DNA of 64,000 nt, from assembly GCA_028705565.1 (NCBI GenBank), contig JAQWDH010000005.1, positions 5,803 through 69,802 on the forward strand. The letters are read 5' to 3'. The translations under genes and the position numbers were made by a program. Under the pieces are notes generated by a model. It was not told the origin of the DNA, searched no databases, and was given only the letters and a program-made list of their open reading frames with translations. Position 1 is the stretch's first letter; every line of letters starts with the position of its first letter. The stretch is from Patescibacteria group bacterium. Lineage in GTDB: Bacteria; Patescibacteriota; Patescibacteriia; Magasanikbacterales; GWA2-37-8. Positions 14,480 through 61,947 of the stretch are shown piece after piece.

Positions 14480-14523
14480 ATATATCCATTATACCAAAAA
14501 TTTCGCATTTAGAGAAAAAGAAA

Positions 14524-14548: not shown

Positions 14549-14555
14549 AAAAATT

Positions 14556-14732: not shown

Positions 14733-14735
14733 TTC

Positions 14736-22498: not shown

Positions 22499-23999
22499 AT
22501 AATAATTTGTTTACCACCCAAACAATAAACCCGTATATTGCGACCATTCCCCACCACGGAAGAAAAAAATCCATCGCGGATAAATTCCAACCGCCTATTT
22601 TTTCCGCTATCATTATAACATAATTCAAACCGATGCCCACAATCCAGGCGACAACTTGCCCGAAAGGAAACCAAACAAAACTCAAAACAACAGCCAAAAA
22701 ACCGAAAAACATCAAATAAGGAACAATCCACAAAATCAAAACATTGGCTACCGGAGCGATCGCGGATAATCGACCGAATTGAAATAAAATCAGAGGCAAG
22801 GTGGCGATAATGGCGGAAAAAGTCGGAGCTAAAATTTGTTTAAACAACGAGGATTTGTTTTTTCCACCTAAAAACGGACTTAGATAAACGATTCCGGCGG
22901 TTGCCAAAAAAGACAACTGAAATCCCGCGTCCCAAACAAGAACATACGGATTAAACAAAAGCATCAACGCCGCCGCCAAAGCCAAAACATATCCTACGCG
23001 CGATAATCTGCCTAAACGCTCGGCGATTAAAAGCACAACACCCATAATTCCGGCGCGCATAACCGAAGCTGAAGCGCCAGTAAAAATGACAAAAACGCAA
23101 ATACCAAAAATCGCAAGCCAAAAAGCTTGACGCCTGTATAATCCGGCTGAAACCAAAAAAATCATAAAAGCCGCGGCAATAATGTTTATATTATAACCTG
23201 ACACAGCGACAATATGCGAAATGCCGGCTCTATTAAAATTTTCTTTCAAATCATCGGGTATTCCGGAACGCGCGCCGTAAAGCAATCCTGATAAAAGTCC
23301 GCTGTCCGGTTCAGGCCATAATTTTTCTATCTGTTCGTTTATCCTAGTTTTTAACCGTAAAATATTTTTTAAAACAAAATTTCCCTCGTCCGCGCCGATT
23401 TTTTCAATTTTCGCGTTTACGCATATTGACCAAATTCCGTCTTTCGCCAAATATCTGTCGTATCTGAAATTTCCATCAGGACTGTTTCGCGGACTTTTCA
23501 AATCGCACGATATTTTTAACTTATCTCCATATTCGTAGCGTGGATACAACAGGCCTTCAACTAACGCGCGTCCGGAAACTTTTTTATTGGAAGACGCTTC
23601 TAAATCATAAATAAATTCTGTTTTAATAATATATTTAACGCTGTCAGGACGGATGTCCGGCTCGCCCACCACCCAACCTATGATTTTTCCTCTCTCTCCG
23701 TTGTAATATAAAATGTTTTTCGCGTCTCCGGATGGAACGCTAATAAAAAAACGAATAGCTCCCAAAACAAAAAATAAAACGCAAAAAAACAAAAATCTGC
23801 TGTTTATATTTTTCCAAAAAATCGCAATCGCGAAAACCAAACACCAAAAAACAACAAATAAATAAAATAAAATATTTTTTTCAATGTCCGAATAAGAAAA
23901 AATGCCGACTCCTGAAATAAAACAAAAACAGAGCATAAGAAATGCCCCGCTTTTTGAATTGATAATTTTTTCAACAACATTCTCTTTCCGAAATGTCAT
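22485..23999 (-). CDS. comEC: ComEC/Rec2 DNA-uptake channel, membrane domains only (DUF4131 + competence domain)
   Basis: 504 aa polytopic; OB-fold-like N-region and competence-domain helices; MBL domain encoded separately at 21032..21877. Confidence 0.65.
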   Translation of the reverse strand: MTFRKENVVEKIINSKSGAFLMLCFCFISGVGIFSYSDIEKNILFYLFVVFWCLVFAIAIFWKNINSRFLFFCVLFFVLGAIRFFISVPSGDAKNILYYNGERGKIIGWVVGEPDIRPDSVKYIIKTEFIYDLEASSNKKVSGRALVEGLLYPRYEYGDKLKISCDLKSPRNSPDGNFRYDRYLAKDGIWSICVNAKIEKIGADEGNFVLKNILRLKTRINEQIEKLWPEPDSGLLSGLLYGARSGIPDDLKENFNRAGISHIVAVSGYNINIIAAAFMIFLVSAGLYRRQAFWLAIFGICVFVIFTGASASVMRAGIMGVVLLIAERLGRLSRVGYVLALAAALMLLFNPYVLVWDAGFQLSFLATAGIVYLSPFLGGKNKSSLFKQILAPTFSAIIATLPLILFQFGRLSAIAPVANVLILWIVPYLMFFGFLAVVLSFVWFPFGQVVAWIVGIGLNYVIMIAEKIGGWNLSAMDFFLPWWGMVAIYGFIVWVVNKLLYVKN

Positions 24000-26900
24000 A
24001 CCACAATGCTAACCAATTTTCCTTTTACATAAATTATTTTTTTCGGCTCTTTGCCTTCCAGCCATTTTTGAATTTTTTCACTCGCGAGCGCTTGTTTTTT
24101 AGCTTCTTCTTCGCTTATCTCCGCTGGCGCGATTAAACTATCGCGAACCTTGCCGTTCACCTGCACAACCAAAATAATTTCGTTCTCCATTGCCGATTTG
24201 GCGTCATATTCAGGCCATTTTTCAAAAATTACGCTTTTTTTATGCCCCAACAAACTCCAGATTTCTTCGCAAAAATGCGGGGCGAACGGCGATAATATCT
24301 TAATAAATAAAGAATAATGTTCAATTGATATTGTTTCTTGTTTTGATAATTCATTTGCTAACTCCATCATTTTCGCGATAGCCGTGTTAAAGCGCATCGC
24401 TTCAATGTCTTCGGTGACTTTTTTTATTGTTTGATGAAGCACAGATGTTATTTTGTCATTGCGAGGATTCGCCCAGGGCGAAGATGAAGCAATCCCGTCA
24501 TTTTTTTGTTTAGTTTTGCTTTTAACGACACGGTCAAAAAGAAACCACACTTTCTCCAAAAATCTTTTAGTTCCAACCAATCCGTTGGTATTCCAAGCGC
24601 ACGGCTGACTGAAGGGACCCATAAACATTTCATAAACGCGCATCGCGTCAGCTCCAAATTCCTTTACCACATCGTCCGGGTTTATCACGTTTCCCCAACG
24701 TTTGCTCATCTTGCGACCGTCTTCGGCTAAAATCAATCCGACGCTTTGTAATTTTTCAAACGGCTCTTCTTTATTAACAACGCCGATATCATATAAAAAT
24801 TTATGCCAAAAACGAGCGTAAATAAGATGACGCGTGGCGTGCTCGGCTCCACCGACATAAAAATCAACCGGAAGCCACCAATCAAACGCTTTACTGTAAT
24901 TGGAAATTGGAAAATTGCCTGCCTGCCGGTAGGCAGGGAAATTGGAAATTTTTTTCATGATATACGCGAGATAATACCAACACGACCCAGCCCATTGGGG
25001 CATCGTGTTGGTTTCTCGTTTCGCCGGTCCTCCGCATTTAGGACATTTTACGTTCACCCATTTTTGAATTCCGGCAAGCGGCGACTCGCCCGTGCCTGTC
25101 GGAACATAAGATTTCACATTAGGAAGCTTTATCGGCAATTTATCTTCCGGTATCGCCATCCAACCCGGATTTAATCGTTCACCATTGGAAATTGTCTCCT
25201 TTCGGGAGATATCCTGTGGGAGAAAATTTTCCATTGATTTTTTACACGCTGGGCAAAAAATCAATGGTATTGGTTCTCCCCAATAACGTTGTCTGGAAAA
25301 AACCCAATCGCGCAATTTATAATTTATTTTCCGTTCCCCATATTTTTTGTCTTCCAACCATTTGATTATTTTTTCTTTCGCCTCTTTGGTTGATAAACCG
25401 TCCAAAAATGTTGAATTAACCGACAGTCCATCGCCCGTATAAGCGCTATTTTTTACGAATTTTTCAAAAAGATAATGATGCAGAGGGTCTTTTACTTTTT
25501 CATCCGCTTCTTTTTCAGTTATCCATTCCAATTTGAATTTGTCTTTTTCCTTATCTGTTAAATTTTGCCCTCCATTTTTTTCGTCAGACAATTCAAAAAA
25601 CAAACCGACTGCTTCTATTTCACGATTTACATTTTTAGAGGCGGCAAAATAATGATGATGAATTTTTTCCGATTCGGCTATTAATTTTACATTTTTATAT
25701 CCTGTTTCTTCTTCAATTTCCCTTTGAGCGCATTTAACCGCGTCCTCTCCGTCTTTTAATCCTCCGCCGATAAATAAATTTCCTCCAAATTTTTCGCCCC
25801 AATTCAAAGAAAGAAGTTTATTGTTTTTTGGGTCGCGCACCAATGCCACGATACTGCGACGAAATTCCTCATTGTCTTTTTTCTGTCCGGTAATCGGCTC
25901 TACCACGGTTTTAATCGGCAATCCGTATTTTTTCGCGAATTCCATATCTCTGTCGTCATGCGCCGGCACGGCCATAACAGCTCCGGCGCCATAACCTCCG
26001 ATTACATAATCGGCGACAAAAATAGGCAATTCCTCGCCGTTGACCGGATTTATCGCTTTAATACCTTTAATTTCAACGCCGGTTTTGTCTTTTTGCAGTT
26101 CGCTTCGTTCCAAAACCGTTTTGTGTTTTGCTTTTTCAACATACGCGGCTATGTCAGCGAAATTTTCAATTTTCCTGCCTACCGGTTTACATACCGTAGG
26201 TATGTTTACATACCGTAGGTATGCAGGGAGACAATTTTCAATTAAAGAATGCTCAGGGGCGACAACAACATAAGTCGCGCCGAATAAAGTATCCGGACGA
26301 GTGGTAAAAACCTCCAAAATGTCATTGCGAGGAATTCCCGAAGGGGATGACGAAGCAATCCCACTGTTACCATTATAATTGTTATAAGATTGCTTCGCTT
26401 CACTCGCAATGACAAAACGCACTGTCGCTCCTTCGCTTCTGCCAATCCAATTTTTTTGCATTTCCTTAATCGCTTCAGGCCAATTTTTCAATTTATCCAA
26501 ATCATTTAACAGCCGTTCGGCGTAATCGGTAATTTTTAACACCCATTGTCTCATTGGCTTCTGCTCAACAGCGGAACCGCAACGCTCGCATTTTCCATCC
26601 TCCAAATCCTCATTTGCCAAACCTGTCTGGCACGACGGACACCAATTTATCGGAGCGTATGATTCATAAGCCAAACCTTTTTTAAACATTTGCAAAAACA
26701 TCCATTGCGTCCATTTATAATATTCCGGATCCGTTGTATTTATTTCCCTGCTCCAATCATAAGTAAAACCCAAAAGTCCAAGCTGTTTTTTGAATATCTT
26801 GATATTTTTTTCAGTCGCTACGCGTGGATGAACTTTATTTTTAATGGCGTAATTTTCCGCCGGCAAACCGAAAGCGTCCCATCCCATCGGATGCAAAACA

Positions 26901-27115
26901 TTAAACCCCTGCATTTGTTTCATTCTGGCGATGACATCGGTGGCGATATAACCTTTCGGATGCCCGACATGCAAACCGGCTCCGGAAGGATACGGAAACA
27001 TATCCAAAATATAATACTTCGGCTTGTCAAAAGTTTTTTTGGTTTGAAAAAGTTTTTTCTTTTCCCAATATCTCTGCCACTTTTTCTCAATTTTTTCCGG
27101 ATTATAATTTTTCAT
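23996..27115 (-). CDS. leuS: Leucyl-tRNA synthetase with NUDIX-domain insertion and two in-frame palindromic-element insertions
   Basis: HVGHP, NWIGRSEGATVRF, AHDDRDMEFAKKYGLPI, KLRDWVFSRQRYWGEPIP, VGGAEHATRHLIYARFW, KMSKRWGN motifs; 1039 aa vs typical about 820-860. Confidence 0.9.
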   Translation of the reverse strand: MKNYNPEKIEKKWQRYWEKKKLFQTKKTFDKPKYYILDMFPYPSGAGLHVGHPKGYIATDVIARMKQMQGFNVLHPMGWDAFGLPAENYAIKNKVHPRVATEKNIKIFKKQLGLLGFTYDWSREINTTDPEYYKWTQWMFLQMFKKGLAYESYAPINWCPSCQTGLANEDLEDGKCERCGSAVEQKPMRQWVLKITDYAERLLNDLDKLKNWPEAIKEMQKNWIGRSEGATVRFVIASEAKQSYNNYNGNSGIASSSPSGIPRNDILEVFTTRPDTLFGATYVVVAPEHSLIENCLPAYLRYVNIPTVCKPVGRKIENFADIAAYVEKAKHKTVLERSELQKDKTGVEIKGIKAINPVNGEELPIFVADYVIGGYGAGAVMAVPAHDDRDMEFAKKYGLPIKTVVEPITGQKKDNEEFRRSIVALVRDPKNNKLLSLNWGEKFGGNLFIGGGLKDGEDAVKCAQREIEEETGYKNVKLIAESEKIHHHYFAASKNVNREIEAVGLFFELSDEKNGGQNLTDKEKDKFKLEWITEKEADEKVKDPLHHYLFEKFVKNSAYTGDGLSVNSTFLDGLSTKEAKEKIIKWLEDKKYGERKINYKLRDWVFSRQRYWGEPIPLIFCPACKKSMENFLPQDISRKETISNGERLNPGWMAIPEDKLPIKLPNVKSYVPTGTGESPLAGIQKWVNVKCPKCGGPAKRETNTMPQWAGSCWYYLAYIMKKISNFPAYRQAGNFPISNYSKAFDWWLPVDFYVGGAEHATRHLIYARFWHKFLYDIGVVNKEEPFEKLQSVGLILAEDGRKMSKRWGNVINPDDVVKEFGADAMRVYEMFMGPFSQPCAWNTNGLVGTKRFLEKVWFLFDRVVKSKTKQKNDGIASSSPWANPRNDKITSVLHQTIKKVTEDIEAMRFNTAIAKMMELANELSKQETISIEHYSLFIKILSPFAPHFCEEIWSLLGHKKSVIFEKWPEYDAKSAMENEIILVVQVNGKVRDSLIAPAEISEEEAKKQALASEKIQKWLEGKEPKKIIYVKGKLVSIVV
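24455..24496. repeat. Palindromic element inserted in-frame in leuS, 42 bp, encodes GIASSSPWANPRND
   Basis: gtcattgcgagg-attcgcccagggcgaa-gatgaagcaatccc; length divisible by 3; ORF continuous through it. Confidence 0.75.
25440..25860 (-). other. NUDIX hydrolase domain embedded in LeuRS between the editing domain and the KLRDW segment
   Basis: Nudix box GGLKDGEDAVKCAQREIEEETGY fits Gx5Ex7REUxEExGU, at about 25698-25769; preceded by RSIVALVRDPKNNKLLSL. Confidence 0.7.
26321..26413. repeat. Palindromic element inserted in-frame in leuS, 93 bp, encodes ...YNGNSGIASSSPSGIPRNDI
   Basis: gtcattgcgag...cgaagcaatc / gattgcttcg...ctcgcaatgac inverted repeats; 31 codons; sits just after the NWIGRSEGATVRF start of the CP1 domain. 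Confidence 0.8.
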
Positions 27116-34255: not shown

Positions 34256-35251
34256 TTATTTCTTATTTTTCTTTCCATTTAAATATCTCTTCATTGTTTT
34301 ATCAAAATCAGAAATAAGATTTTTGTTCTGTTCTTTTTTGTATTTTTCAAATTCTGCATTAGCCACCAGTACGGCTTGCTCGGCGCTTACTTTACCTGAA
34401 TTAACTAGAAGTTTTTTCTCGCTCAGTTTCAAAAAATCATCAAGTTTACCAATCCAGTCAGTCATTTTCATAAATCGACCGTTTGTTGCTTGTAATTCAG
34501 CAAAATCTAAATAAAGTGAAACAATTAAATTGAGTTGTTTTAGCTCGTTCTCCGACAAATAATTCTTGGCAATTTTTATATCTTGAGCGGTGACGTATTT
34601 ACCCTTGAAATTAGTTAGCCCCATCATCAGTTTTTTGCTATTCGCCCGATTGGCCACAATTTCTGCTGCCGTTTGTCCATGAACAGCAAAATGCATTTTG
34701 TTTTGAACAATAGCAAAAAAATCTTTTGTTAGTTCGTCGTCCTTTTTATAATCAATGCTAGTGGCGTAAATGTCGGTTACTTTTTGATAAAAATTGCGTT
34801 CACTACTCCGGATATCTCTAATTCTTTGGAGCAGTTCTTCAAAATAACGCGATTTATTATCGCCCTGTTTTAATCGTTCATCGTCTAACACAAACCCTTT
34901 TATAATATATTCCTTAAGCCGCTGTGTTGCCCAAATTCTAAACTGTGTTCCACGCAATGATTTAACTCGATAGCCGACGGAAATAATGATATCAAGATTA
35001 TAATAATTTGTCGGTTTAGTAGAAAATTCGGAATTTCCGAATTTTCTCATTGTTTGTGCTAAAACAAGCTCTTTTTCATCATAAATATTCTGAATGTGCT
35101 CATTTACCGTAGATTTTGATTTATCAAAAAGAACAGTCATTTCATCTTGGGTAAGCCAAACAGTTCCATCTTCCATTTTCACTTGCAGTTTTGCTTCCCC
35201 GTCATCAGTGGTGTAAATAATTATTTGTGACTTATGGTTGTTTTTTTTCAT
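34256..35251 (-). CDS. RhuM-family (virulence protein RhuM-like) protein
   Basis: 331 aa; N-terminus IIIYTTDDGEAKLQVKMEDGTVWLTQDEMTVLFDKSKSTVNEHIQNIYDEKEL matches the conserved RhuM-family N-region. Confidence 0.6.
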   Translation of the reverse strand: MKKNNHKSQIIIYTTDDGEAKLQVKMEDGTVWLTQDEMTVLFDKSKSTVNEHIQNIYDEKELVLAQTMRKFGNSEFSTKPTNYYNLDIIISVGYRVKSLRGTQFRIWATQRLKEYIIKGFVLDDERLKQGDNKSRYFEELLQRIRDIRSSERNFYQKVTDIYATSIDYKKDDELTKDFFAIVQNKMHFAVHGQTAAEIVANRANSKKLMMGLTNFKGKYVTAQDIKIAKNYLSENELKQLNLIVSLYLDFAELQATNGRFMKMTDWIGKLDDFLKLSEKKLLVNSGKVSAEQAVLVANAEFEKYKKEQNKNLISDFDKTMKRYLNGKKNKK

Positions 35252-35380
35252 ACATTCATGAGAATTCAGGCATTATTTTGGTCATGCGCAGATATTGGAT
35301 AATGTTTATTATAATATACTTTTTTCGTTGTTTGTACATCAATTCAAAGTAAGTGCATCAATGGAACATAAAATCCGCTA

Positions 35381-35455
35381 TGGTAGCCCCAACGGGAATC
35401 GAACCCGTATTACCACATTGAAAGCGTGGTGTCCTAGCCATTAGACGATGGGGCC
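35381..35455 (-). tRNA. tRNA-Glu (anticodon UUC), CCA encoded
   Basis: Cloverleaf folded by hand: acceptor GGCCCCA/TGGGGCT, anticodon stem CCACG/TGTGG, loop CTTTCAA, T-loop GGTTCGATTCC. Confidence 0.85.
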
Positions 35456-35557
35456 AGAAAAAATTTAAAAGCGTAATTATTATATGTTATTTTTAATCAA
35501 AAGTCAAGGGATAACATTGACATTTGCTGAATTTTTTGATAAAATTATTTTAACTTT

Positions 35558-35631
35558 GTCAGGGTAGCTCAGATGGTTAGAGCACGGGATTCATAACCCC
35601 GAGGTCGGGAGTTCGATTCTCCCCCCTGACA
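35558..35631 (+). tRNA. tRNA-Met (anticodon CAU; elongator or Ile-lysidine type, 1-72 paired)
   Basis: Acceptor GTCAGGG/CCCTGAC, D-arm GCTCAGATGGTTAGAGC, anticodon loop TTCATAA, T-arm GGGAGTTCGATTCTCCC. Confidence 0.85.
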
Positions 35632-35676
35632 CTAAAAATCGTTCTTTAAAATCTGCCGATTGGCGGAAGGAGGAAA

Positions 35677-50894: not shown

Positions 50895-53429
50895 ATGGAC
50901 ATTCTTGACCGTTTTTCAACTCATTTGCGGGAGACGCTTACGCGGGGAATCGGGACGGCAACCGAATTGTATAATTCGGAAGTGGAGCCAATCCACCTTT
51001 TTTTTGCTTTACTCGCGCAAAAAGGTTCAATCGCGTCAGAAATAATGAATCGCCTGAAAATAGACAAAAAAAAAGTTGAACAAATAATTGTAAATTTGCC
51101 GAAAAATTTTCAAGAAAAAATAATTCCAACCGGCAAACACAACCAAACCGCGGAGAATGTATTGCCCGCTATGTCGGTCGCGAGCCGTTTCGCTTTGGAA
51201 AAAGCCATGTCAATCGCGCATAAAAATCAACATAATTATATAGGAACCGAACACCTTTTGGCCGCGCTTGTTCAATCGGACGACGCTTTAATAAAACAAG
51301 CTCTCAAGGAAAGCGGAGTTAAAGCCGATAATTTGGAAAAACAATTGGAAACGGTTTTAAACAACGCCACTCAATTTCCAAAAATAGCCGAGATGACCGA
51401 AGCGCTGGAAAAAATTCAAGGACAGTTAATCGGCGACTCTTTGCTCTCCGGATTATCGGAAAACGAAGAAAAACAACCGCGCAAAACATCTCACAAAAAA
51501 AAGCAGGAATCGGCTTTGGATTATTTTGCCACCAATCTCACAAGTACGGAAAACCAAAAAAATATTGACCCTGTCATAGGACGCGAGATGGAAATTGAAC
51601 GGCTCGTGCAAATACTTTGCAGACGGACAAAAAATAATCCCGTGCTTTTGGGAGAGCCAGGTGTCGGTAAGACAGCCATAGTGGAAGGTTTGGCGAAAAA
51701 AATTTTTGAAAACAAGGAACCGGCTCTCGCCGGCAAAAAAATTTACGCTTTGGATATGGGGCTTCTCATTGCCGGCACCATTTATAGAGGCGAATTTGAA
51801 GCGCGTCTGAAACAAGTGATAGATGAGATTTCAGAAGATAAAAGCATTATTCTTTTCATAGACGAAATTCACAACATCGTCGGCGCGGGTTCAAATCAAG
51901 GAACAATGGACGCGGCGAACATCTTAAAACCCGCTCTAGCGCGCGGTCTCATTCATTGCATCGGCGCCACTACTCCGACCGAATTCAAAAAACACATTGA
52001 AAACGACCCGGCCCTTGAAAGACGTTTTCAGCCGATATTTACGCGCGAATCCGGAATTGAAGAATCAATAAAAATTTTAAACGGCATAAAAGAAAATTAC
52101 GAAAAATTCCACAATGTAAAAATTACAAACGAGGCCGTGGAAGCCGCGGTTAAACTTTCTGAACGTTATATTCCAAATAAATTTTTACCGGATAAAGCCA
52201 TTGATATTTTGGACGAAACCGCCTCAGCTTTGCGTTTGCGAAAAAAACCGACCCTGAATGAAAATAAACTTTTACGGCTTAAACAAAAACTTGAACAAGT
52301 TTTGATTTCCAAGGAAAAATCCGCCGCGTCTGATAATTTTTCAGAAGCCGCAAAATGGAAAGACGAAGAAAAAAAACTCGCGGAAGAAATCAAAATAACG
52401 GAAAACATAATTTCTAAAAACAAAAAAATCATCGGCGAAATAGGCGCGTTGGAAATCGCGGAACAAGTTGCTAAAATCTGCGGGACAAAACCCCAAGAAC
52501 TTCTGATGGGAGAAAAAGAACGAATGAATGGTTTAAAAAACGATTTAAAAAAATACATTTTGGGACAAGACGAGGTTTTGGAAGAAGTAAGCCAAGGCAT
52601 AATTCGCTCTCAATTAGGCATCGCGGACGCGAACAAACCGACCGCTTCGTTCTTTTTTGTCGGAGAAAGCGGCTCGGGCAAAACCGAACTGGCGAAATCA
52701 ATCACCAAGGCGCTCTATCCCGCGCACGACGCTCTCATACGTCTTGACATGAGCGAATTCAATGAAAGTTTCGGTGTGTCAAAACTTTTAGGTTCGCCTG
52801 CCGGATATATCGGCTACAAAGAAAGCAACCAATTCACGGACAGGGTGAAAATGAATCCTCACAGCGTTATACTTTTTGATGAAATAGACAAGGCGCATCG
52901 CGATGTCGTCAAACTTTTATTGCAAATTCTGGAAAGCGGCGAGATTACGGATTCAACCGGTAAAAAAATTTCTTTGCGTCAATCAATTATAATCCTTACT
53001 GCCACAACCGGAGTTGAAGAAACAAAAAACGGATGCATCGGTTTCGGAAACTCCTCACAAAAAAAAGAAGACCGCGTAAAAATCGCGGTAGAAAAATTAA
53101 AAGAACATTTTTCCGCCGAACTTATCAATCGTATTGATAAAATTTGTTTATTTAACCATATTTCTCCGGAAATTCTTTCGGAAATAGCAGATTTGGAAAT
53201 AAAACAAATCAACGAACGGCTGAAAAAATATAAAACCGCCGTGCAAACCGACAAACAAATTTTGGATTGGCTCGCTCGGCAATTGCCCGCGTCGGAAACA
53301 AACGCGCGTTCCATTCGCCGGCTCGCGCGCGAAGAAATAGAAAAAATAATGTCTGAAATAATATTGAAAGGAAAAATAAAATCCAATTTCAAATTAACCG
53401 TTGAAAAAGAAAAATTAATGGCGAGGTAA
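50895..53429 (+). CDS. clpC: ATP-dependent Clp protease ATP-binding subunit ClpC-like (class I AAA+)
   Basis: 844 aa; Clp_N repeats, two Walker A sites [15 protein letters not shown] and [13 protein letters not shown], middle UVR-like segment. Confidence 0.8.
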
Positions 53430-53475
53430 GTTAGCAAGAACCGCTTTTAATTTCCAATTTATATTTTAACAATTA

Positions 53476-53573
53476 ACAACACAAAATTTTTAATTTTATA
53501 ATTTTTAAATAAATCTTGATGCTTAAATTTTTAAACATTAAAAATTATAAAATTAAAAATTGATACTTGTGTT
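53476..53573. repeat. AT-rich inverted repeat (about 28-bp arms) upstream of the 53580 gene
   Basis: acacaaaatttttaattttataattttt vs reverse complement of aaaaattataaaattaaaaattgatacttgtgt. Confidence 0.7.
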
Positions 53574-53579
53574 TTATAT

Positions 53580-54314
53580 ATGTCTCCATTTGAAAAACAA
53601 AATTTTAGCTCACCTCCTCCGCAGCTGCCAGAAAACGAACAACATTCCGCGGCTGACGAATTGGCGAGCGCGAGATCCGCAAAACCCGCCGGGGTTGACC
53701 CTTCCGGATTTTTAAATCAACGCCCGCGAGAAGAATTCGCGTCTCTTGTTCCGTCTGAAGAAATCGGAGCGGCAGAAGAAATGGAAAACGAAAAAGCGCA
53801 AGCGAGAATGGAAAAAGAAAACGAAGAAAGCGCTCCGAATGAAGTTAATGAATATCTGGAAGAAATGGGAGGTATGGCGAATTTTGGAGGGCAAGGACAA
53901 GAACGCGGATGGACAAATCAGATAAACAACGCTCTGAAAGAAATAGGCGGCATGAAGTCAGACCAAAATAAACTGGAAAAAATGAACAGATTGGTTACTA
54001 AATTGAAAAAACTTGAAAAAGCGGCGCGCGCAGTTGATGCCATCTCCACCATCAAAAATTACCTAGCCATAATGGTTGAAATATGGTGGTGGACGATAAT
54101 TGGAGCTATAATAGATATAGTAATTGTCATCCCTGCGATTTTTCTCGCTTACTGGCTCGGTTTTGTCAAAGGCAAATTCGCGAAACAAATGGAGGCGCTG
54201 AGAAAAACCGCGGAAAAAGCGAAAAACAAAATATCCGCGATTATAAAAATAAAAAATTTGCAAAAAATCAGCCTTGCGGAAGCGGCGACTTTATATGGAA
54301 AAAATAAATTATAA
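53580..54314 (+). CDS. Hypothetical membrane protein (acidic N-region, C-terminal TM)
   Basis: 244 aa; TM IMVEIWWWTIIGAIIDIVIVIPAIFLAYWLGFV. Confidence 0.4.
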   Translation: MSPFEKQNFSSPPPQLPENEQHSAADELASARSAKPAGVDPSGFLNQRPREEFASLVPSEEIGAAEEMENEKAQARMEKENEESAPNEVNEYLEEMGGMANFGGQGQERGWTNQINNALKEIGGMKSDQNKLEKMNRLVTKLKKLEKAARAVDAISTIKNYLAIMVEIWWWTIIGAIIDIVIVIPAIFLAYWLGFVKGKFAKQMEALRKTAEKAKNKISAIIKIKNLQKISLAEAATLYGKNKL

Positions 54315-54324
54315 ATTTTAATCT

Positions 54325-55563
54325 ATGTTTTTCAATTTCAAAAAAATAATTTTAATCGTCATCGTCGTCATAATCGCCGGTCTTATCGGTTTCGCTCTTT
54401 ATTATATGTTTACCAAAACGGCCCCAATTCAAAAAACAACAGAAACAGGGGAAGTCACGCCGTCAGGACAACTCCCATCGTCCGGAGAAATGCCGGCCGG
54501 CGCGACAGGGGCTGAAACCGAAGGAGAAATACCGTCAGGACAACTGCCGTCGGGAATATCCGTTCCGGGCGCGGGAAGCGCGTCCTATTATCAGCCGAAA
54601 GCCGTAATAAAAATCAGCGACGATTACGCGGTCCATTCTTCTTTAAATTCAAAAAATGGAAATTATCGCTACTACAATTCAGGCAACGGAAAATTTTACC
54701 GCGTTCAAGCCGACGGAACGATAAAAGAATTAACCGACCAAGTTTTTTACAATGTCAAAAATGTAACTTGGGCGAAAAACAACGATAAGGCGGTTTTGGA
54801 GTATCCGGACGGCTCAAAAATAATTTATAATTTTGAAATCAAAAAACAAGTCACTTTGCCAAAACATTGGGAAGAATTTTCCTTTTCCTCGGATGGAACG
54901 CAGGTCGCCGCCAAAAGCATCGGATTGTCGCCGGAAAATCGATGGCTCGTGACGATAAACGACGACGGAACCGGAACGAAACTTGTGGAGCCGATGGGAA
55001 ATAACGCCGACCGCGTGCAAATCGCATGGTCTCCGAGCAACCAAACAGTCGCTTTTTCGCAAACCGGCGAACCGCTTGGAGCCGAACGACGCGAAGTGCT
55101 TTTTGTCGGATTAAACAATGAAAATTTCAAATCAACGATTGTTGAAGGCATGGGGTTTACTCCGCAATGGTCAAATACGGGAAAAAAGTTGCTATACAGC
55201 GTTTACAGCTCACGCACCGATTACAAACCGGAAATTTGGGTTGTTAATTCTTATGGAGATGAAATCGGCTCGGACAGACAAGAGCTAAAAATAAATACAT
55301 GGGCTGATAAATGCGCTTTCGGAGACGACAACACTCTTTTTTGCGCTATACCGCAAAACCTTCCCCGCGGAGCTGGAATGTCGCGTGAAATAGCGAACAG
55401 CTCGTATGATACGCTTTATAAAATTGACTTAAAAACAGGCCTCAAAACCAATATACCATTGGAGGAAAACTATAACATTCAAAACATTTCTTACGACCAA
55501 TCCAACAATAAACTTTTTTTTAACGACTTAAATAAAAACGGAATTTTTGAAGCGCAATTATAA
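54325..55563 (+). CDS. Membrane-anchored TolB-like beta-propeller protein
   Basis: 412 aa; N-terminal TM; repeats resembling PD40/WD40-like beta-propeller blades (LEYPDGSKIIY, IAWSPSNQTVAFS, QWSNTGKKLLYS). Confidence 0.5.
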   Translation: MFFNFKKIILIVIVVIIAGLIGFALYYMFTKTAPIQKTTETGEVTPSGQLPSSGEMPAGATGAETEGEIPSGQLPSGISVPGAGSASYYQPKAVIKISDDYAVHSSLNSKNGNYRYYNSGNGKFYRVQADGTIKELTDQVFYNVKNVTWAKNNDKAVLEYPDGSKIIYNFEIKKQVTLPKHWEEFSFSSDGTQVAAKSIGLSPENRWLVTINDDGTGTKLVEPMGNNADRVQIAWSPSNQTVAFSQTGEPLGAERREVLFVGLNNENFKSTIVEGMGFTPQWSNTGKKLLYSVYSSRTDYKPEIWVVNSYGDEIGSDRQELKINTWADKCAFGDDNTLFCAIPQNLPRGAGMSREIANSSYDTLYKIDLKTGLKTNIPLEENYNIQNISYDQSNNKLFFNDLNKNGIFEAQL

Positions 55564-56209
55564 TATGAAAAAATTATATTTGATTCTTTTTATTACAGCG
55601 GCTTTGGCAGGAGTTTTCTTTTTTACGCAATACAAAAAAATGCGCGGCATCACAATCACGCATAAAACCACCGATATCATTAGCCAACAAATTTATAACA
55701 TTCCAATTTCCAACAGCGAAGAACCATACGGAAACCCGGGCGCGCCTATGACGATTGTTGAATTTATTGATTTGAACAATCGCGACAGTCGCGATATTCA
55801 TCTCGCTCTGGTTGCTTTTATAAATAAAAACACTCAATCGGCAAGATTATTTTGGAAAGACGCTCCATATAAAGGGATTATTTTTCAAAATGATATAATT
55901 GCTCATAAAGCGGTCTTTTGCGCCGCTAAACAAAAAAAAGGATGGGAGTTCGCGAATAAAATAGCGACTGAGAAAAAAATAAATGAAGCGATTTTACAAA
56001 AAGTAGGACAGAGTGTTGATTTCAACATTGGCAACTGGTGGCTATGCGCCAATTCGCAAGAAGCGAAAGATTATATTGACGCGTCAGCTGCTTTAAGCAA
56101 AGCTCTCGGCGTAAATTCCGCTCCGGCGATTTTTGTAAACAATCGCCGTTTGAATTTGGACACCGAAATCCCATTGGAAGAAATTTTAAATAAATTCATT
56201 GTCAAATAA
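55547..56209 (+). CDS. DsbA-like thioredoxin-fold protein lacking a CxxC motif
   Basis: 220 aa; N-terminal TM; GNPGAPMTIVEFIDL resembles DsbA N-region but no CxxC follows. Confidence 0.4.
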   Translation: MKRNYNMKKLYLILFITAALAGVFFFTQYKKMRGITITHKTTDIISQQIYNIPISNSEEPYGNPGAPMTIVEFIDLNNRDSRDIHLALVAFINKNTQSARLFWKDAPYKGIIFQNDIIAHKAVFCAAKQKKGWEFANKIATEKKINEAILQKVGQSVDFNIGNWWLCANSQEAKDYIDASAALSKALGVNSAPAIFVNNRRLNLDTEIPLEEILNKFIVK

Positions 56210-56211
56210 TT

Positions 56212-58119
56212 ATGCGTGAAATTAAAAAACTCGGAATATCCTGCGTATTAAGCTTGTTTTTGCTGTTATTTTTTTGCGCGCCGGTTTACGCCGGATCGTG
56301 TAAATGCCTGCAAACAAGCGATACTGGTTCGGAAGAAATGTGTTATGAAGAAAAAAACAGCGCCAGCGATTGTCCTTCTGGAACTTTGGGAAATCTCACT
56401 ATCGCTTCATGCAATTTTTTTTCAGGAGCCAATTGTCAAACCGCGTCCACTGAAACAACTCCAGCCGTTACGGATGTCACGGAAGATTTACAAATTAACA
56501 AGCCCATATTGGAAATAAACATTCCGCAACTTCAATTGAGCGACGTTGGCGCCGAGCTGGATGAAGAGGGCTACATGCATTTGCCGTGGATAGGAGAATA
56601 TCTGTCCGCGATTTATAAATTCGGACTTATAGCCATAAGCATTGTCGCGGTGGTTTTGATTATTTTAACAGGAGCAAAAATAATCGTTTCTGACGAAAAA
56701 GAAAAAAATGAAGGACTAAAACGCGTCGGACAAATTGTTATCGGCCTTTTCATCGCCTGGGGTTCCTACGCCATTCTTTACAACATCAATCCCGATTTGG
56801 TGACTTTTAAACCGTTAAAAGTAAGGTATATACCGCGCACAAGTTTTGACCAACTGATATTTGATAAGGGAAATGAAAACGAATCCTTTGCAACTTCCAA
56901 CCTTTCGCCATCCGAGCTAGACGGTCTGTTCCGATCATATGCGTCTTGCTATGGCATGGATTGGAAAATTTTAAAAGTTATAGCTCAAACAGAAAGTAAC
57001 CTAAATCCGAATGTGGTTAACAGGTTTGGTTTTCAAGGCCTGTTTCAAATGAAAAGGGCGTATTGCGAAGGTTCCATGGAAATTGAACCGAGATTACAAT
57101 CTTCGGGTTTAAATATAAATTGCGAAAATTTATTGGATCCTGAAACAAATACCGCTCTTGCGGCTGCCGGCATCAACCATGATCTTGGTAGAATTATAAA
57201 TAAATGCGGACAAAATATCAACGGCGCCGATGCGGTAAGATTAATATATATAGGGCATAACAATGGCGCCGGAGTTTTAAGAAGCATATTAAACAGAGTG
57301 ACAAGCGGTCAATGCCAAGGAAATAATATAAGAGCCATTGTTGAACAAGTTTATAGAAGCGGGGAATTCCATAGTAATATCACAGTGGAAGAAGCATTGC
57401 GAAGATTTGATAATGCCATAACCAGAACAGCTCAAAGAGCCCAATCAGCCGGAATTTCCAATGTCTATCCTAACGGTCCAGATACGAACACTTGCCCGCT
57501 TTCAACAGGCAGAAGATACGCCGGTATAACAAATAATATAACCACAAATAATATTTTAGCTATCGGCGATTCTATCACAGCCGATTCTTCTTCATACGCG
57601 CGTGTTTTGACAATACCTGAATCAAATATAAAAGCGCAAGTTGGCAGAAAAGTTGATATCCCGGGCGAAGGCAGCTGCCCGGGAGAAACATGCGATATGC
57701 GCGCTTCAATAAAAAATCTTAATTTATCCGGTTTTACTTCAGTAATCGTTTTAGGAGGAATTAATGATCTGGCCTCTGTAAAAAATGCCCAAACCGTAAT
57801 TAACAGATTAACCAGTTTATATAATGATATAAAAAATAAAAACAACAATATTAAAATAATAGGTATTACAATACCTCCGTGGGGAAATTGGACTGGCAAC
57901 AGTGACGCCGCAAATTTACAAGACGAAACGCAAACAATAAATAATTGGATTAAATCAAACGCGGACATAGCTGTTGATTTTTACAGTTTGATACTTGAAC
58001 CGAATAGCGCCCCTCCAGCGCAACAACAAAGATATAAAGGCGACGGTTTGCACCCGAATTCCGCGGCTCACCAAGTTCTGGCAAACGAAATAAGACAGCG
58101 AGCTTTTCCAAACCAATAA
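56212..58119 (+). CDS. Secreted/membrane-anchored fusion: Cys-rich N-domain + 2 TM + lytic transglycosylase (SLT) + SGNH/GDSL hydrolase
   Basis: Signal peptide; SLT motif VIAQTESNLNPNVVNRFGFQGLFQM; SGNH blocks ILAIGDSITADS, VLGGINDL, DGLHPN. Confidence 0.65.
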   Translation: MREIKKLGISCVLSLFLLLFFCAPVYAGSCKCLQTSDTGSEEMCYEEKNSASDCPSGTLGNLTIASCNFFSGANCQTASTETTPAVTDVTEDLQINKPILEINIPQLQLSDVGAELDEEGYMHLPWIGEYLSAIYKFGLIAISIVAVVLIILTGAKIIVSDEKEKNEGLKRVGQIVIGLFIAWGSYAILYNINPDLVTFKPLKVRYIPRTSFDQLIFDKGNENESFATSNLSPSELDGLFRSYASCYGMDWKILKVIAQTESNLNPNVVNRFGFQGLFQMKRAYCEGSMEIEPRLQSSGLNINCENLLDPETNTALAAAGINHDLGRIINKCGQNINGADAVRLIYIGHNNGAGVLRSILNRVTSGQCQGNNIRAIVEQVYRSGEFHSNITVEEALRRFDNAITRTAQRAQSAGISNVYPNGPDTNTCPLSTGRRYAGITNNITTNNILAIGDSITADSSSYARVLTIPESNIKAQVGRKVDIPGEGSCPGETCDMRASIKNLNLSGFTSVIVLGGINDLASVKNAQTVINRLTSLYNDIKNKNNNIKIIGITIPPWGNWTGNSDAANLQDETQTINNWIKSNADIAVDFYSLILEPNSAPPAQQQRYKGDGLHPNSAAHQVLANEIRQRAFPNQ

Positions 58120-58149: not shown

Positions 58150-59508
58150 ATGAGCAAACAAGCTGCGATGTTTATTTGTTCCAATTGCGACGCTCAATAT
58201 ACCAAATGGGTTGGGCGGTGTTTGGAATGCGGAAAATGGGGAACTGTTGAATCCGCCAGAGGCGGATTCGCCTTAAGCGAAAAATCACAAAAGGAAACGG
58301 CTGAATTTTCCCCGATAAAAACATTAACTTTAAACGAAATTGAAGGTAAAAACGCGATAAGAATTAAAACAAATATAAATGAACTGGATAGGGTTTTGGG
58401 TGGCGGCATCGTGCCTGGAAGTTTAATACTTTTGGGCGGAGAACCGGGCGTTGGAAAATCCACTTTAGCGATTCAACTCTCGTCAATTCTCCCGAATTCA
58501 TTATATATTTCAGGGGAGGAGTCAACGGAACAGATAAAATTACGAGCGGAAAGGTTGGATATAAAAGCGCCGAATTTGCGTTTGGCGAATGAAACGAATG
58601 TTGAAAATATCTCCGCGACCATAAAACAAAAATTTTCGCTTGCCGTGATTGATTCAATCCAAACAATTTATTCCGAAGAAATTGATAGCGAGCCGGGCAA
58701 TCCGAACCAGCTCCGCGCCTGCGCCGTAAAACTTATGGAAACCGCGAAATCATCAAACACTGCGGTAATCATTATTGGACATGTCACAAAAGAAGGAGTT
58801 GTGGCAGGTCCAAAAACTTTGGAGCATTTGGTTGACACGGTGCTCTACTTGGAAGGCGATCAGCGCCATCAGTATAGAATTTTGCGCGCGGTAAAAAATC
58901 GTTTCGGCCCGACAAATGAAGTAGGAATTTTTTCAATGGAAGAAAACGGACTCGCGGAAGTAAAAAATCCTTCGGCGAGTTTTCTTTCAGAAAGAGCCAA
59001 CGACCTCGCCGGAAATGTAATCACTTGCTTGATGGAAGGGACGCGCCCGATTCTTGTTGAAATACAAGCGCTCGTGACCAAAACCGCTTTCGGATATCCG
59101 ACGCGCAAAGCCAATGGTTTTGACATAAATCGCCTGCATATGATTATCGCGGTTTTGCAAAAACGAGCAGGTTTGCGTTTGGAACAATACGATATACATT
59201 TGAATGTAGCCGGCGGATTGCGCGCGGAAGAACCGGCGGCCGACCTCGCGGTTGCTTTGGCGATTGCGAGCGCCTGCAAAGATAAGGTGCTGGGATTTGA
59301 CATCGCGGCTTTCGGTGAAATCGGATTGGGCGGAGAAATCAGAACGGTTGCCAACGCGGAAAAAAGAATCAAAGAATGCGAACAATTGGGACTCAAAAAA
59401 ATAATCATGGCGCGCGGAACAAATCCAAACAAAAAATCGTCTGAAAAACAAAAAATCGCCGATATTAAAATTATGGAAATTAAAACCATCGGCGAAGTTT
59501 TCAAATGA
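58150..59508 (+). CDS. radA: DNA repair protein RadA/Sms
   Basis: 452 aa; Zn finger CSNCDAQYTKWVGRCLECGKW, Walker A GEPGVGKST, KNRFG, Lon-like C-domain. Confidence 0.9.
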   Translation: MSKQAAMFICSNCDAQYTKWVGRCLECGKWGTVESARGGFALSEKSQKETAEFSPIKTLTLNEIEGKNAIRIKTNINELDRVLGGGIVPGSLILLGGEPGVGKSTLAIQLSSILPNSLYISGEESTEQIKLRAERLDIKAPNLRLANETNVENISATIKQKFSLAVIDSIQTIYSEEIDSEPGNPNQLRACAVKLMETAKSSNTAVIIIGHVTKEGVVAGPKTLEHLVDTVLYLEGDQRHQYRILRAVKNRFGPTNEVGIFSMEENGLAEVKNPSASFLSERANDLAGNVITCLMEGTRPILVEIQALVTKTAFGYPTRKANGFDINRLHMIIAVLQKRAGLRLEQYDIHLNVAGGLRAEEPAADLAVALAIASACKDKVLGFDIAAFGEIGLGGEIRTVANAEKRIKECEQLGLKKIIMARGTNPNKKSSEKQKIADIKIMEIKTIGEVFK

Positions 59509-59523: not shown

Positions 59524-61947
59524 TTATTTTTTCTTCAAATTTTTAAAGGCCGCGTCGTGAATCGGTTTTCCGTAAATTCCGACTGGAAAAAGAAGCTCAA
59601 TCAAAGACCTTAATCCTTTTGTTTTATAAAGACGGTCGTCTCCGTATCTTTTGTCGTCTTCTTTTTTTTGCCGTTCAAAATAAAAACCGCTGTGTCCATC
59701 TTCGCTCGGAGCGAACACCTGTATTTCTTCGTAATAAACATTGTTTCCGCCAGTATATTGAATATAAAATTTCGCGAACCGTATATCGCCTCCGCTTCCG
59801 ACGCTTCTTTTTTTCGCCTGATTTCCATTTCCGCCGGTTGGCTTGTAATCAAAAATTTTTATTCCATGATGTTTGGCTATCTCTGAAATCAATTCCAAAA
59901 TTGCCGGAACCTCTTCTCCATCTTTTTGTTTTATTTCTTTTTCAATCAAAATCGGAAAACCGCCGTTCATTTCCAGCTTACCTTCTTTGTCCCTTTTCGC
60001 TTCAAAAATTTTAATGTCTGAAAAATCTTTTTTTAAATCCGCGAATTTTTTCATTTCACCCATCTTTTTCAAATCCGCGTCCAAAGGATGTAAAACGATT
60101 TCTCTTCTAAAAATATCTATTATGTTTTTCGGGTCGTCCAGTCCCCTTTCAACCGCTTTGCGATAAACCGATTCAATTTTTTTCGTGTCGGTTTCAATTG
60201 ACGCCAAATAATTTTTATTTTTAAATTTTCGCAATTCCGCTTTTTGTCTTCCTAATAATACGTCGTCTTTCACTTCCACATCTTCCAAAATTTCATTGTC
60301 TTTTTTGTAATCCAAAAATTTATTGACGGTCGCGCCTTTAAAAACATCGGAAAACACTTTTTCAATCGGCGCGTTGCCAAGATTTTTACGTTCTTCATAA
60401 TGTTTGTCCGTTTCCGCGAAAAGATATAAAAGAACTAGCTGTCTTCTCGCCTCAAAAACCACTTCCTTGATTTTTCTTTTCAATTCTTCTTTACTGAAAT
60501 TTTCGTCCTTAAATCTTTCTTTCCATTCTTCGTCTCCGGCCGGAAAAGCCATTTTGATAATACCCTCCAAATCAAAATTTCTCACTTCATTTAAAGTTTT
60601 AACCAGCGAATGGTGAAAATCAATATCAATTTTCGGGCTGATGGCGCTATCAACCAAATAATCCAAAAACGAATTTATCCTGTCAAATTTTGAAAAAAGC
60701 GCGTCTTTTTCCACGCCAAAAGATTCCATAAAATCTTCCTCTATTTGTTTCGCCGTGTCCATATCGCGCGTTAATTCTCCTATTTTTTTAATCTTTCCAA
60801 AAAAACTTTTTTCAGAAGAAGAAATTTTATTGGCAAACATTTCCAATTTACCGATAAATTTGGAAAGTTTTTTGTTCTTTTTGGCGATTTCTAGATATTT
60901 ATCGGATAAATACGAAGTTTCCAAAAGCGCGTAAATACAACGCAAAACCGCTTCTATCTCGGATTTTCCCGCGCGTTCTCCGCCGACTTCTTCTTCAAAA
61001 TTACTCAAGTCCGCCGCCTCGCAAAACAAACCACGAGCGTTTTTTCCGTCTTTATTTTTAAAATCGCCATATTTTTTCCAAAAATCTTTTATCACTGTTT
61101 GCGTTCCCCATAAACCCTCACCTAATCCTTTTTTATCAACGGATGACGCGAGACGGCGCTTCCATTTATTTTTTTCTTCTTCATGCGCGCCCGACAAATC
61201 AAGAAAATGCGTTAAAACATTTATTTTTTTATTTGCTTCCTTTTCTTCCATAATTGACAGAAGTTCTCCTGAAATTTCACTCGCCGAATCGGAATCCGCG
61301 TCCAACAAATTTTCTTCTTTCTTGCCTTCCGCTGTAATATTCAGACTGTCCAACAAAAAAACTGTCTTTTTTTCCGGCTCAATTTCAAATTTTCCTTTCG
61401 TAAAAAGTTCAGCTGTTTGTTTTAAATCCAAGTGATGAAAATCTTCAACTTTATCTTCCGCCGGATTCAATGGATACGCTTCGTCCAGCGGCGGAACATT
61501 GCCGACAAAAAAAGACGCTTCTATCGGTATTTTTTCTTTTTTTCGGCTGTGAAAAATTTTATAATCCATTTTTCCGATAAATTTTAAATCAACATCAAGC
61601 GGACGCAGGTGCGTTTCTTCCAACATTTCCCTTTGCGCGGTTTCTTCTATTTTTTCCCAATCTTTCTTTTTTCCGCCGACAGGCATAACCTGCCCCGGAT
61701 TTACGCTTTCACTATTTTTTTCCATCCACATCGCGGTCGTAAAAAAAACATCCGATGGCTCGGCTCCTGATTCAATTTCTTTTTTAATTTCGTTTGTCGG
61801 ACGCGAACGCAAAATGAACACTCTGGCGACTTCACGCTTTTTTTCCGACTCTTTTTCTAAATTTAAACCTTCCTTGAACATAAACGATAATGAATTATAA
61901 ATATTAAGCCATAGTCCGTAGTACAAAGTCCGTAGTCCGTAGTCCAC
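59524..61947 (-). CDS. Large hypothetical protein with N-terminal Nudix-like domain
   Basis: 807 aa; GGKKKDWEKIEETAQREMLEETHL fits Gx5Ex7REUxEExGU except G to H at the penultimate position; remainder has no recognised domain. Confidence 0.4.
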   Translation of the reverse strand: MDYGLRTLYYGLWLNIYNSLSFMFKEGLNLEKESEKKREVARVFILRSRPTNEIKKEIESGAEPSDVFFTTAMWMEKNSESVNPGQVMPVGGKKKDWEKIEETAQREMLEETHLRPLDVDLKFIGKMDYKIFHSRKKEKIPIEASFFVGNVPPLDEAYPLNPAEDKVEDFHHLDLKQTAELFTKGKFEIEPEKKTVFLLDSLNITAEGKKEENLLDADSDSASEISGELLSIMEEKEANKKINVLTHFLDLSGAHEEEKNKWKRRLASSVDKKGLGEGLWGTQTVIKDFWKKYGDFKNKDGKNARGLFCEAADLSNFEEEVGGERAGKSEIEAVLRCIYALLETSYLSDKYLEIAKKNKKLSKFIGKLEMFANKISSSEKSFFGKIKKIGELTRDMDTAKQIEEDFMESFGVEKDALFSKFDRINSFLDYLVDSAISPKIDIDFHHSLVKTLNEVRNFDLEGIIKMAFPAGDEEWKERFKDENFSKEELKRKIKEVVFEARRQLVLLYLFAETDKHYEERKNLGNAPIEKVFSDVFKGATVNKFLDYKKDNEILEDVEVKDDVLLGRQKAELRKFKNKNYLASIETDTKKIESVYRKAVERGLDDPKNIIDIFRREIVLHPLDADLKKMGEMKKFADLKKDFSDIKIFEAKRDKEGKLEMNGGFPILIEKEIKQKDGEEVPAILELISEIAKHHGIKIFDYKPTGGNGNQAKKRSVGSGGDIRFAKFYIQYTGGNNVYYEEIQVFAPSEDGHSGFYFERQKKEDDKRYGDDRLYKTKGLRSLIELLFPVGIYGKPIHDAAFKNLKKK

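Follow-up and report, generated by a model that had tools for sequence, protein, structure and literature searches.

Interchangeable enzymes on a putative VirB2-like membrane module in a conserved clpC-radA gene block of Candidatus Magasanikbacteria

Results

A tightly spaced four-gene block between clpC and radA

We analysed a 64,000-nucleotide stretch from a Patescibacteria group bacterium (assembly GCA_028705565.1, contig JAQWDH010000005.1, positions 5,803 to 69,802; the whole stretch is hereafter called the window, GC content ~40%), focusing on four plus-strand open reading frames (ORFs) that lie between clpC and radA at 53580-58119 and that we call g1 to g4. The last of these, g4, encodes an exported protein in which a membrane hairpin, likely related to VirB2-type pilins, precedes a lytic transglycosylase domain and an SGNH esterase domain. 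In relatives the hairpin stays in place while the enzymes behind it are exchanged between species. The genes are separated by 10 nt (g1/g2), 1 nt (g2/g3) and 2 nt (g3/g4), and radA follows g4 after 30 nt (Table 1). Together with the 4-6 nt found between clpC and g1 in relatives (including L010-L012 and L017), these gaps suggest one transcript, and g1-g4 probably constitute a conserved, co-transcribed envelope operon of Candidatus Magasanikbacteria. In Bacillus subtilis, clpC and radA are neighbours within the clpC operon, so the block resembles an insertion that split an originally joint clpC-radA unit. The same block was found in three independent assemblies, with g4 identical in all three; the NCBI entry for the exact g4 protein is MDD4477021.1, 'GDSL-type esterase/lipase family protein [Patescibacteria group bacterium]'.

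In the window, clpC and g1 are parted by a 150-nt spacer that holds the inverted repeat (RNA fold z-score -3.55), and a promoter-like TTAACA-18-TATAAT at 53473-53502 overlaps the repeat, which is retained in strain L001. Given the 4-6 nt seen in relatives, this spacer is specific to the window lineage. An earlier note, made from the letters of the sequence, had described four co-directional, tightly spaced genes following clpC and an AT-rich inverted repeat, and the ORFs, the ClpC domains and the repeat all confirm that description; the start coordinate that it gave for the cluster, 53476, falls inside the spacer and not in a gene. In a comparison of the window with strain L001 (50895-59508 against 4684-13297), the mismatch rate per kb was 36 in clpC and 43 in g1 but only 0-3 across g2-g3-g4-radA, a drop that suggests a recombination breakpoint near the g1/g2 boundary. 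At the protein level, g1 differs between these strains by 14 amino acid changes in 244 residues, and ClpC is 99% identical.

Table 1 Features of the g1-g4 locus (positions in the window; SLT, lytic transglycosylase domain; TM, transmembrane; AF2, AlphaFold 2; pLDDT, predicted local distance difference test score)
Feature	Position	Strand	Description
clpC	50895..53429	+	upstream neighbour; Pfam domains Clp_N, AAA, AAA_2, ClpB_D2-small
inverted repeat, AT-only	53485..53561		perfect 24-nt arms 53485-53508 and 53538-53561, 29-nt loop
g1	53580..54314	+	244 aa, membrane protein
g2	54325..55563	+	412 aa, TM helix and beta-propeller
g3	55565..56209	+	214 aa from ATG; 220 aa if TTG at 55547; thioredoxin/DsbA fold
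g4	56212..58119	+	635 aa, exported SLT and SGNH protein
g4 signal peptide	56212..56292	+	residues 1-27; cleavage VYA|GS predicted by reading the sequence; AF2 helix 2-21
g4 Cys-rich N-terminal region	56293..56460	+	residues 28-83; six Cys; AF2 pLDDT <50
g4 putative VirB2-like pilin module	56461..56832	+	residues 84-207; extracytoplasmic lead-in, two TM helices, short charged loop, IAWGSYAILYNINPDLV motif
g4 SLT/GH23 family-1 lytic transglycosylase	56899..57471	+	residues ~230-420; catalytic E261
g4 SGNH/GDSL esterase	57544..58116	+	residues ~445-635; S454, N518, D611, H614
radA/sms	58150..59508	+	downstream neighbour

Two enzyme domains with intact catalytic residues in g4

Profile hidden Markov model searches and structure prediction of g4 (AF2 model, mean pLDDT 74.7) both support the two enzymatic folds that the earlier note had read from motifs. 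For the SLT domain, PF01464 matches residues 239-360 (41.6 bits against a cut-off of 21.3, E 1.1e-10), the motifs AQTE261S, GLFQM (276-280) and GHNNGAG (348-354) are present, and the model exceeds pLDDT 90 over residues 230-420. The fold is goose-lysozyme-like, with Foldseek matches to MltE, MltC and Slt70 at probability 1.0 and sequence-level matches as well. Compared with these family 1 (GH23) enzymes of E. coli (MltE is also called EmtA), the g4 domain has the same fold and E-S motif at ~17-22% identity; unlike g4, they are lipoprotein-anchored or soluble, come from a diderm, and have neither an esterase nor a hairpin anchor. The SGNH domain likewise has the three blocks noticed earlier, matching PF13472 (Lipase_GDSL_2; 66.1 bits against 32.9, E 7.3e-18) and PF00657 (29 bits against 23.6), with block I as GDS454IT, block III as GGIN518D and block V as D611GLH614PN; the glycine region of block II (469-493) falls below pLDDT 50 and is without a clear motif. 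Further upstream, the predicted signal sequence (of n-h-c type) and the six Cys between residues 30 and 75 agree with the signal peptide and Cys-rich N-domain of the earlier note. Across the g4 family this Cys-rich region varies from 0 to 370 aa and from 0 to 30 Cys.

The substrate of the esterase is less clear-cut. By structure and sequence, the SGNH domain matches sialate O-acetylesterase, the acetyl-xylan esterase PbeAcXE, CE3 enzymes and Ape1, and it has the SGNH Ser/Asn/Asp-His blocks in common with all of them, including the Ape1 of Neisseria and Campylobacter. Membership of the Ape1 family is not supported, as Campylobacter jejuni Ape1 comes only 38th in the Foldseek ranking. Of the proposed Ape-like esterase on O-acetylated peptidoglycan, then, the family assignment lacks support and the chemistry remains coherent: lytic transglycosylases require a free C6 hydroxyl on N-acetylmuramic acid (MurNAc), O-acetylation blocks them, and Ape-type esterases relieve that block, so an esterase that licenses a lytic transglycosylase makes chemical sense. 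Freeing this hydroxyl is Ape1's role and the function that we propose for the g4 domain. Ape1, however, is a periplasmic protein of its own whose gene accompanies patA and patB, whereas the g4 esterase is fused to the transglycosylase, and no patA or patB was found in the g1-g4 block or among the scanned ORFs of the window, some small ORFs being unscanned. When the SLT and SGNH part of g4 was used alone as a query, the two domains occurred together only inside the g4 family, in a word-index search that is no proof of uniqueness.

The shared core of the g4 family is a pilin-like module

The two-helix membrane hairpin of g4, noticed in the earlier reading, is well supported: hydrophobic helices span 130-162 and 172-190, AF2 places helices at 127-159 and 162-192 with a pLDDT of ~90, and the short charged loop between them reads SDEKEKNEGLKR. 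Residues ~84-207, which include this hairpin, are the part chiefly shared among g4 homologues (50-66% identity). PF18895 (T4SS_pilin, named for the type IV secretion system, T4SS) matches in 31 of 50 homologues, and all five isolated forward modules scored above its cut-off of 26.6 bits (29.9-37.9 bits), with secondary TrbC/VirB2 matches. A composition artefact was rejected as the source of these matches, since the reversed controls gave none (0/5). The window's own g4 scores 16.6 bits, under the cut-off, so its assignment to the pilin family goes through close homology to members above it. Judging from these sequence matches, we consider the hairpin likely to be a VirB2-like T4SS_pilin (PF18895) module, and it is the best-conserved part of the protein, ahead of the enzymes.

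An exhaustive phmmer search with the module returned 4,153 representatives at E<=1e-3, of which 108 reach E<=1e-30; among the 4,153 matches, the 150 best are hydrolase fusions, almost all of 350-830 aa. A head of at least 60 aa (median ~245 aa) follows the module in 211 of 212 family proteins, so that the 635-aa window protein and its family are unlike small pilin-only proteins. Searching the family profile against PDB sequences for solved pilins gave nothing even at E<=10. As in patescibacterial VirB2-like pilins (PF18895), a signal peptide in g4 is combined with a two-helix hairpin and a short charged loop. Canonical PF18895 pilins, though, are small, arrayed and near virB4 (PMC12102498); the g4 family is not near virB4, and to the hairpin it adds a conserved lead-in of ~40 aa, a variable Cys-rich N-terminus and a head of ~250-430 aa.

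The partner proteins g1, g2 and g3

Searches with g1 gave no significant family match. Its N-terminal 150 aa are acidic and of low complexity (isoelectric point 4.9), which accords with the acidic protein of the earlier note, but the whole protein has an isoelectric point of 6.7, and the C-terminal tail anchor proposed there fits less well than a hairpin would, considering that the hydrophobic stretch is 38 aa long (162-199) and is followed by a basic helical tail of 45 aa. Among species g1 varies strongly in sequence and in length (244 to ~765 aa) and is barely alignable.

g2, which had been called a TM-anchored TolB-like propeller, does have an N-terminal TM helix (3-31), followed by a disordered linker of ~55 aa and a seven-bladed beta-propeller (AF2 pLDDT 85.5; Foldseek) that is predicted to be extracytoplasmic, with a conserved Cys pair (C330/C340). 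Its orthology to TolB was rejected: TIGR02800 scores 17.3 bits against a cut-off of 343, and the Foldseek matches indicate a generic seven-bladed fold. There is a single PD40 match (23.5 bits), and the search for homologues returned 2104. No tol or pal genes lie near g2, and the organism is monoderm.

g3 is TM-anchored and matches Thioredoxin_4 (E 5.5e-7; 30.3 bits against a cut-off of 23.2). NRDS stands at the CxxC position, in line with the DsbA-fold protein lacking CxxC that had been noticed, and a second Cys pair (C119/C161) is retained. CxxC is present in 25 of 29 g3 orthologues, having been lost in the window, L026 and L039 (N/SxxS) and in L019. With CxxC gone, g3 of the window lineage cannot be an oxidase there, and it is probably a chaperone or scaffold. 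In every lineage, those with a CxxC-less g3 included, the pilin-module proteins have many Cys outside the module, and across the family there is no correlation between CxxC loss in g3 and Cys loss in g4. In F-type T4SS, pilus assembly draws on both TrbB, which has CXXC, and TraF, which lacks it (PMC11315126). Like them, g3 is a thioredoxin-fold protein encoded with a pilin-family protein, in redox-active and CXXC-less versions; the likeness, at the level of the fold, is one of analogy, and g3 is of the TM-anchored DsbA/Thioredoxin_4 type.

A DsbA-like gene adjoins genes for PF18895-module proteins not only in the main block but in two unrelated contexts. One such pair lies outside the clpC-radA block beside uvrA and a response regulator gene (L029, 18492-20695, minus strand), and in L040 (3656-9415) DsbA-like and PF18895-module genes are interleaved with genes for 2-oxoacid:ferredoxin oxidoreductase subunits.

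The block is fixed in position and its heads are exchanged

A scan of species-representative genomes gave 28 loci, almost all from Candidatus Magasanikbacteria, to which loci found by exact-protein look-up were added. The earlier note had presented the four genes as a cluster, and their co-occurrence extends to relatives: g2, g3 and then one or two pilin-module genes follow in this order in 27/27 other loci with enough upstream sequence. The usual flanks are PGM (minus strand) and ClpC upstream and RadA and RecG (minus strand) downstream. The locus L013 (Magasanikbacteria GW2011_GWA2_37_8, LBTN01000012.1) has no clpC and reads PGM(-)-g1-g2-g3-g4-radA, and recG comes straight after the g4 slot in L015, L019 and L029. 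In relatives, the identity to the window proteins is ~60% for g2, ~57% for ClpC, ~60% for RadA, 50-63% for the module and ~37% for g3. A housekeeping role accounts better than an arms race would for g2 and the module being conserved like ClpC and RadA, at a core-genome position.

The enzymes at this position are another matter. Only 2 of 39 g4-slot proteins carry GDSL and 5 carry SLT; the other heads at the slot are VanY/M15, M23, Amidase_2, C39/CHAP, metallophosphatase or unannotated. Across the family, the annotated heads comprise SLT, GDSL, VanY/M15, M15_4, M23, Amidase_2, C39_2/CHAP, NlpC/P60 and metallophosphatase, and the heads of the 212 family proteins form at least 22 sequence clusters. 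Where two genes occupy one slot, their heads differ. Swaps were seen between species-level lineages and not between close strains, and compared with L004 the heads are 33-39% identical against 51% for the module, so the heads evolve faster. The enzymatic head at the g4 slot is thus exchanged between species on a fixed anchor. The emphasis that had been placed on the SLT-SGNH fusion was therefore misplaced, the conserved core being the hairpin module. GDSL and SLT do share a polypeptide in 4 of 5 GDSL-bearing members (P0001, P0002, P0004, P0005); the fifth, P0034, has GDSL on the same anchor and no SLT match on record.

Several observations concern the related loci themselves. Metagenome-assembled genomes with a Magasanikbacteria-type block are titled 'uncultured Gammaproteobacteria bacterium' (L014, L022, L023, L025, L028, L029, L035, L036, L038, L040) or 'Candidatus Udaeobacter sp.' (L034), and given the gene content and synteny such titles are likely wrong. 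Between radA and recG, the window has an 807-aa ORF (59524-61947, minus strand) with a weak N-terminal NUDIX match (1.4e-5) and no other annotation; orthologues at 33-35% identity occupy the same position in L018 (2600-5020) and L024 (14738-17149). Straight downstream of recG, three loci carry genes for a PilB-type T2SSE ATPase, an unannotated 321-aa ORF and FtsH (for example L032, 14620-19249, minus strand).

The block and type IV secretion

Patescibacteria have a monoderm-type T4SS whose VirB2-like pilins (PF18895) are often arrayed near virB4, and their VirB1-like hydrolases often have extra wall-related domains (PMC12102498). A pilin array is essential in Southlakia epibionticum (PMC10633639; PMC12857230). 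In class ABY1, recG and radA are frequently part of loci that hold T4SS genes, according to a remark in the same survey that may or may not concern the g1-g4 block (PMC12102498). A T4SS locus at the block itself was rejected, as no VirB4, VirD4 or VirB6 was found in the window or, in the flanks (up to 10 kb) of related loci, among all unassigned ORFs 300 aa or longer. Flank ORFs of related loci gave FtsH, a PilB-type ATPase, LytR-CpsA-Psr, EngA and UvrA. T4SS context was also absent at two outlier loci (the second pair of L029, and L040). T4SS genes do occur elsewhere in Magasanikbacteria: GCA_000992085.1, the source of L013, has VirB4-TrsD-PrgI at genes 794-796 (PMC12102498), and the T4SS component table of that paper does not include KKQ40794.1, the block protein of L013.

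Other features of the window

An envelope-glycan region at 1727-15875 encodes two Wzy_C (O-antigen-ligase-like) proteins, a GT4 enzyme, a Glycos_transf_4 (MraY/WecA-type) protein and a Mur ligase, together with a 686-aa GHL15 and FG-GAP protein and a protein with four MopE-type metal-binding motifs. At 23996-27115 (minus strand), a leucyl-tRNA synthetase of 1039 aa has a NUDIX domain (418-544, E 3e-13) inserted right after its editing domain. The region 34256-35632 contains a RhuM-family gene (E 4e-106) beside divergent tRNA-Glu (35381-35455, minus strand) and tRNA-Met (35558-35632, plus strand) genes, and may be a small mobile-element remnant.

Discussion

A proposed membrane-tethered complex with exchangeable hydrolases

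We favour, at a probability of about 0.5, a membrane-tethered wall-remodelling complex in which a fixed anchor and scaffold carry an exchangeable hydrolase that acts on the producer's own wall. On this reading g4 would be exported by Sec, lose its signal peptide and then be held in the cytoplasmic membrane by the VirB2/T4SS_pilin-like hairpin, with the Cys-rich part outside, the first TM helix running inward, the SDEKEKNEGLKR loop inside, the second TM helix running outward, and the SLT and SGNH domains outside. The SGNH domain would strip O-acetyl groups from the glycan, after which the SLT domain (E261), which needs the free C6 hydroxyl, would cleave bonds between MurNAc and N-acetylglucosamine to give 1,6-anhydro-MurNAc. 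The pilin-like module would be the fixed docking and anchoring unit, the g2 propeller a scaffold or regulator outside the membrane, and g1 a link to the cytoplasm; g3 would be an oxidase in most species but, in the window lineage, a chaperone without redox activity. The head would be an exchangeable cartridge, replaced in relatives by a peptidase, amidase or phosphoesterase, often as two tandem genes with different heads. As modelled, only ~25 residues link the second TM helix to the SLT domain, which would seat the enzymes close to the membrane and sacculus of the producer itself. The organism synthesises peptidoglycan, with a Mur ligase and a GT4 enzyme encoded in the window. Of the peptidoglycan-remodelling machine of the earlier note, the SLT and SGNH domains and the co-occurrence of the genes are supported, but the fusion itself is not the conserved feature.

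Several points weigh against this reading. Head exchange among positional orthologues is also a signature of polymorphic effectors aimed at other cells, and a pilin-family anchor is odd for a purely housekeeping autolysin. An attack on the host envelope has already been put forward as the role of lytic transglycosylases on the patescibacterial surface (PMC11665869). The nearest structures to the g4 SGNH domain are sialate and xylan O-acetylesterases, and no O-acetyltransferase gene was found among the scanned ORFs of the window, about one third of the smaller ORFs being unscanned. The case for a g1-g4 complex consists solely of gene adjacency and co-conservation, which may point to one. This reading and those that follow are also not fully exclusive of each other.

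A possible tool directed at the host

The first three of these points, along with the faster evolution of the heads, would be accommodated if the module delivered or displayed its head at the interface between episymbiont and host, as a weapon or feeding tool that breaches the host sacculus; we consider this possible but doubtful. Possible routes are release of the head or recruitment of the module from the membrane into a VirB2-type filament, and head diversity would track host wall chemistry, with the SLT and esterase pair serving for hosts with O-acetylated peptidoglycan. Like polymorphic toxins and effectors, the g4 family joins a conserved N-terminal module to swapped C-terminal enzymes in at least 22 clusters, with tandem paralogues that differ. 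VirB4, TrsD and PrgI are encoded elsewhere in Magasanikbacteria genomes, and a cultured Patescibacterium cannot do without its VirB2-like pilins (PMC10633639; PMC12857230). Unlike polymorphic toxins, however, the family has no dedicated secretion genes nearby (no T4SS ATPase or channel gene in the window or in flanks of up to 10 kb around related loci) and no evident immunity-like gene, with only 30 nt between g4 and radA. The block sits in a housekeeping neighbourhood at a core-genome position and is found across the whole clade, g2 and the module change at the slow pace of ClpC and RadA, and variation is among species-level lineages and not close strains (g4 is identical in three assemblies). 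A head of ~430 aa on each subunit would also be hard to fit into a VirB2-type helical filament.

A possible gateway enzyme for a trans-envelope apparatus

We think it unlikely that g4 is a gateway enzyme of the VirB1/PrgK/TraG type, which would open the producer's own wall locally for a T4SS, type IV pili or a competence apparatus, with the module as the docking part. A membrane anchor joined to SLT and a second hydrolase is the classic architecture of monoderm conjugation hydrolases (PMC12102498). The VirB1 analogues PrgK (pCF10), TraG (pIP501), CwlT (ICEBs1) and TcpG resemble g4 in that one polypeptide, in a monoderm setting, combines an N-terminal membrane anchor with an SLT or muramidase domain and a further wall-active domain. 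Their second domain is CHAP, NlpC/P60 or LytM, whereas that of g4 is an SGNH esterase; g4 further differs in its anchor, a two-helix hairpin of the pilin family, and in lying in a clpC-radA block and not a conjugation locus. The likely homology of this anchor to T4SS pilins agrees with the gateway idea, as do the parallel between g3 and the thioredoxin-fold TrbB and TraF that aid F-type pilus assembly (PMC11315126), the class ABY1 loci in which T4SS genes lie close to recG and radA (PMC12102498), and the PilB-type ATPase downstream of recG in three loci. On the other side, the block is not beside virB4 at any locus examined, GCA_000992085.1 has its T4SS core at genes 794-796 with KKQ40794.1 absent from the listed components, and metallophosphatase and unknown heads do not match simple hole-punching.

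Less probable readings

Less probable again is an enzyme-armed pilus. Here the module proteins would be true T4SS-type minor or tip pilins, or would be released after processing, and VirB4 encoded elsewhere would extract them into a VirB2-like filament that carries interchangeable wall-degrading enzymes to the host surface for attachment or feeding, with g2 and g3 as assembly chaperones.

We give the least weight to an SGNH domain that is not a peptidoglycan de-O-acetylase but acts on another acetylated glycan or on lipids, or as an acetyl-transferase, its pairing with SLT being uncoupled. PatB and OatA are SGNH-fold acetyl-transferases. The nearest relatives of the domain are xylan and sialate O-acetylesterases and 'lysophospholipase L1-like' proteins of ~420 aa from Caulobacter and Actinoplanes, polysaccharide genes are numerous in the window (among them Wzy_C twice, GT4, GHL15), and P0034 lacks a recorded SLT match; but the other four GDSL-bearing members do share a polypeptide with SLT, the chemical logic of coupling is strong, and no acyltransferase-3 or MBOAT partner was found among the scanned ORFs. 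A polymorphic toxin with its immunity gene was rejected, as there is no candidate immunity ORF and radA, or a second pilin-module gene in relatives, follows directly.

Significance

The domains of g4 are individually ordinary, and membrane-anchored bifunctional wall hydrolases are already known. In the open-access literature, we found no wall hydrolase with a pilin-family anchor or with partners like g1, g2 and g3, and for such enzymes no fixed clpC-radA position and no head exchange among positional orthologues. Several members of the family lie above the PF18895 threshold, so Pfam-based surveys may count them as VirB2 pilins; in the one genome checked (GCA_000992085.1), the block protein does not figure in the published survey. 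The SLT-SGNH fusion offers a testable case of esterase-licensed glycan cleavage in a single polypeptide, and an anchor that proved to be a real pilus subunit would represent a novel route by which enzymes pass from cell to cell. With the block in a fixed core-genome position across a whole candidate phylum-level lineage, the g1-g4 locus is a concrete and widespread candidate for how Patescibacteria remodel their own wall or breach that of a host.

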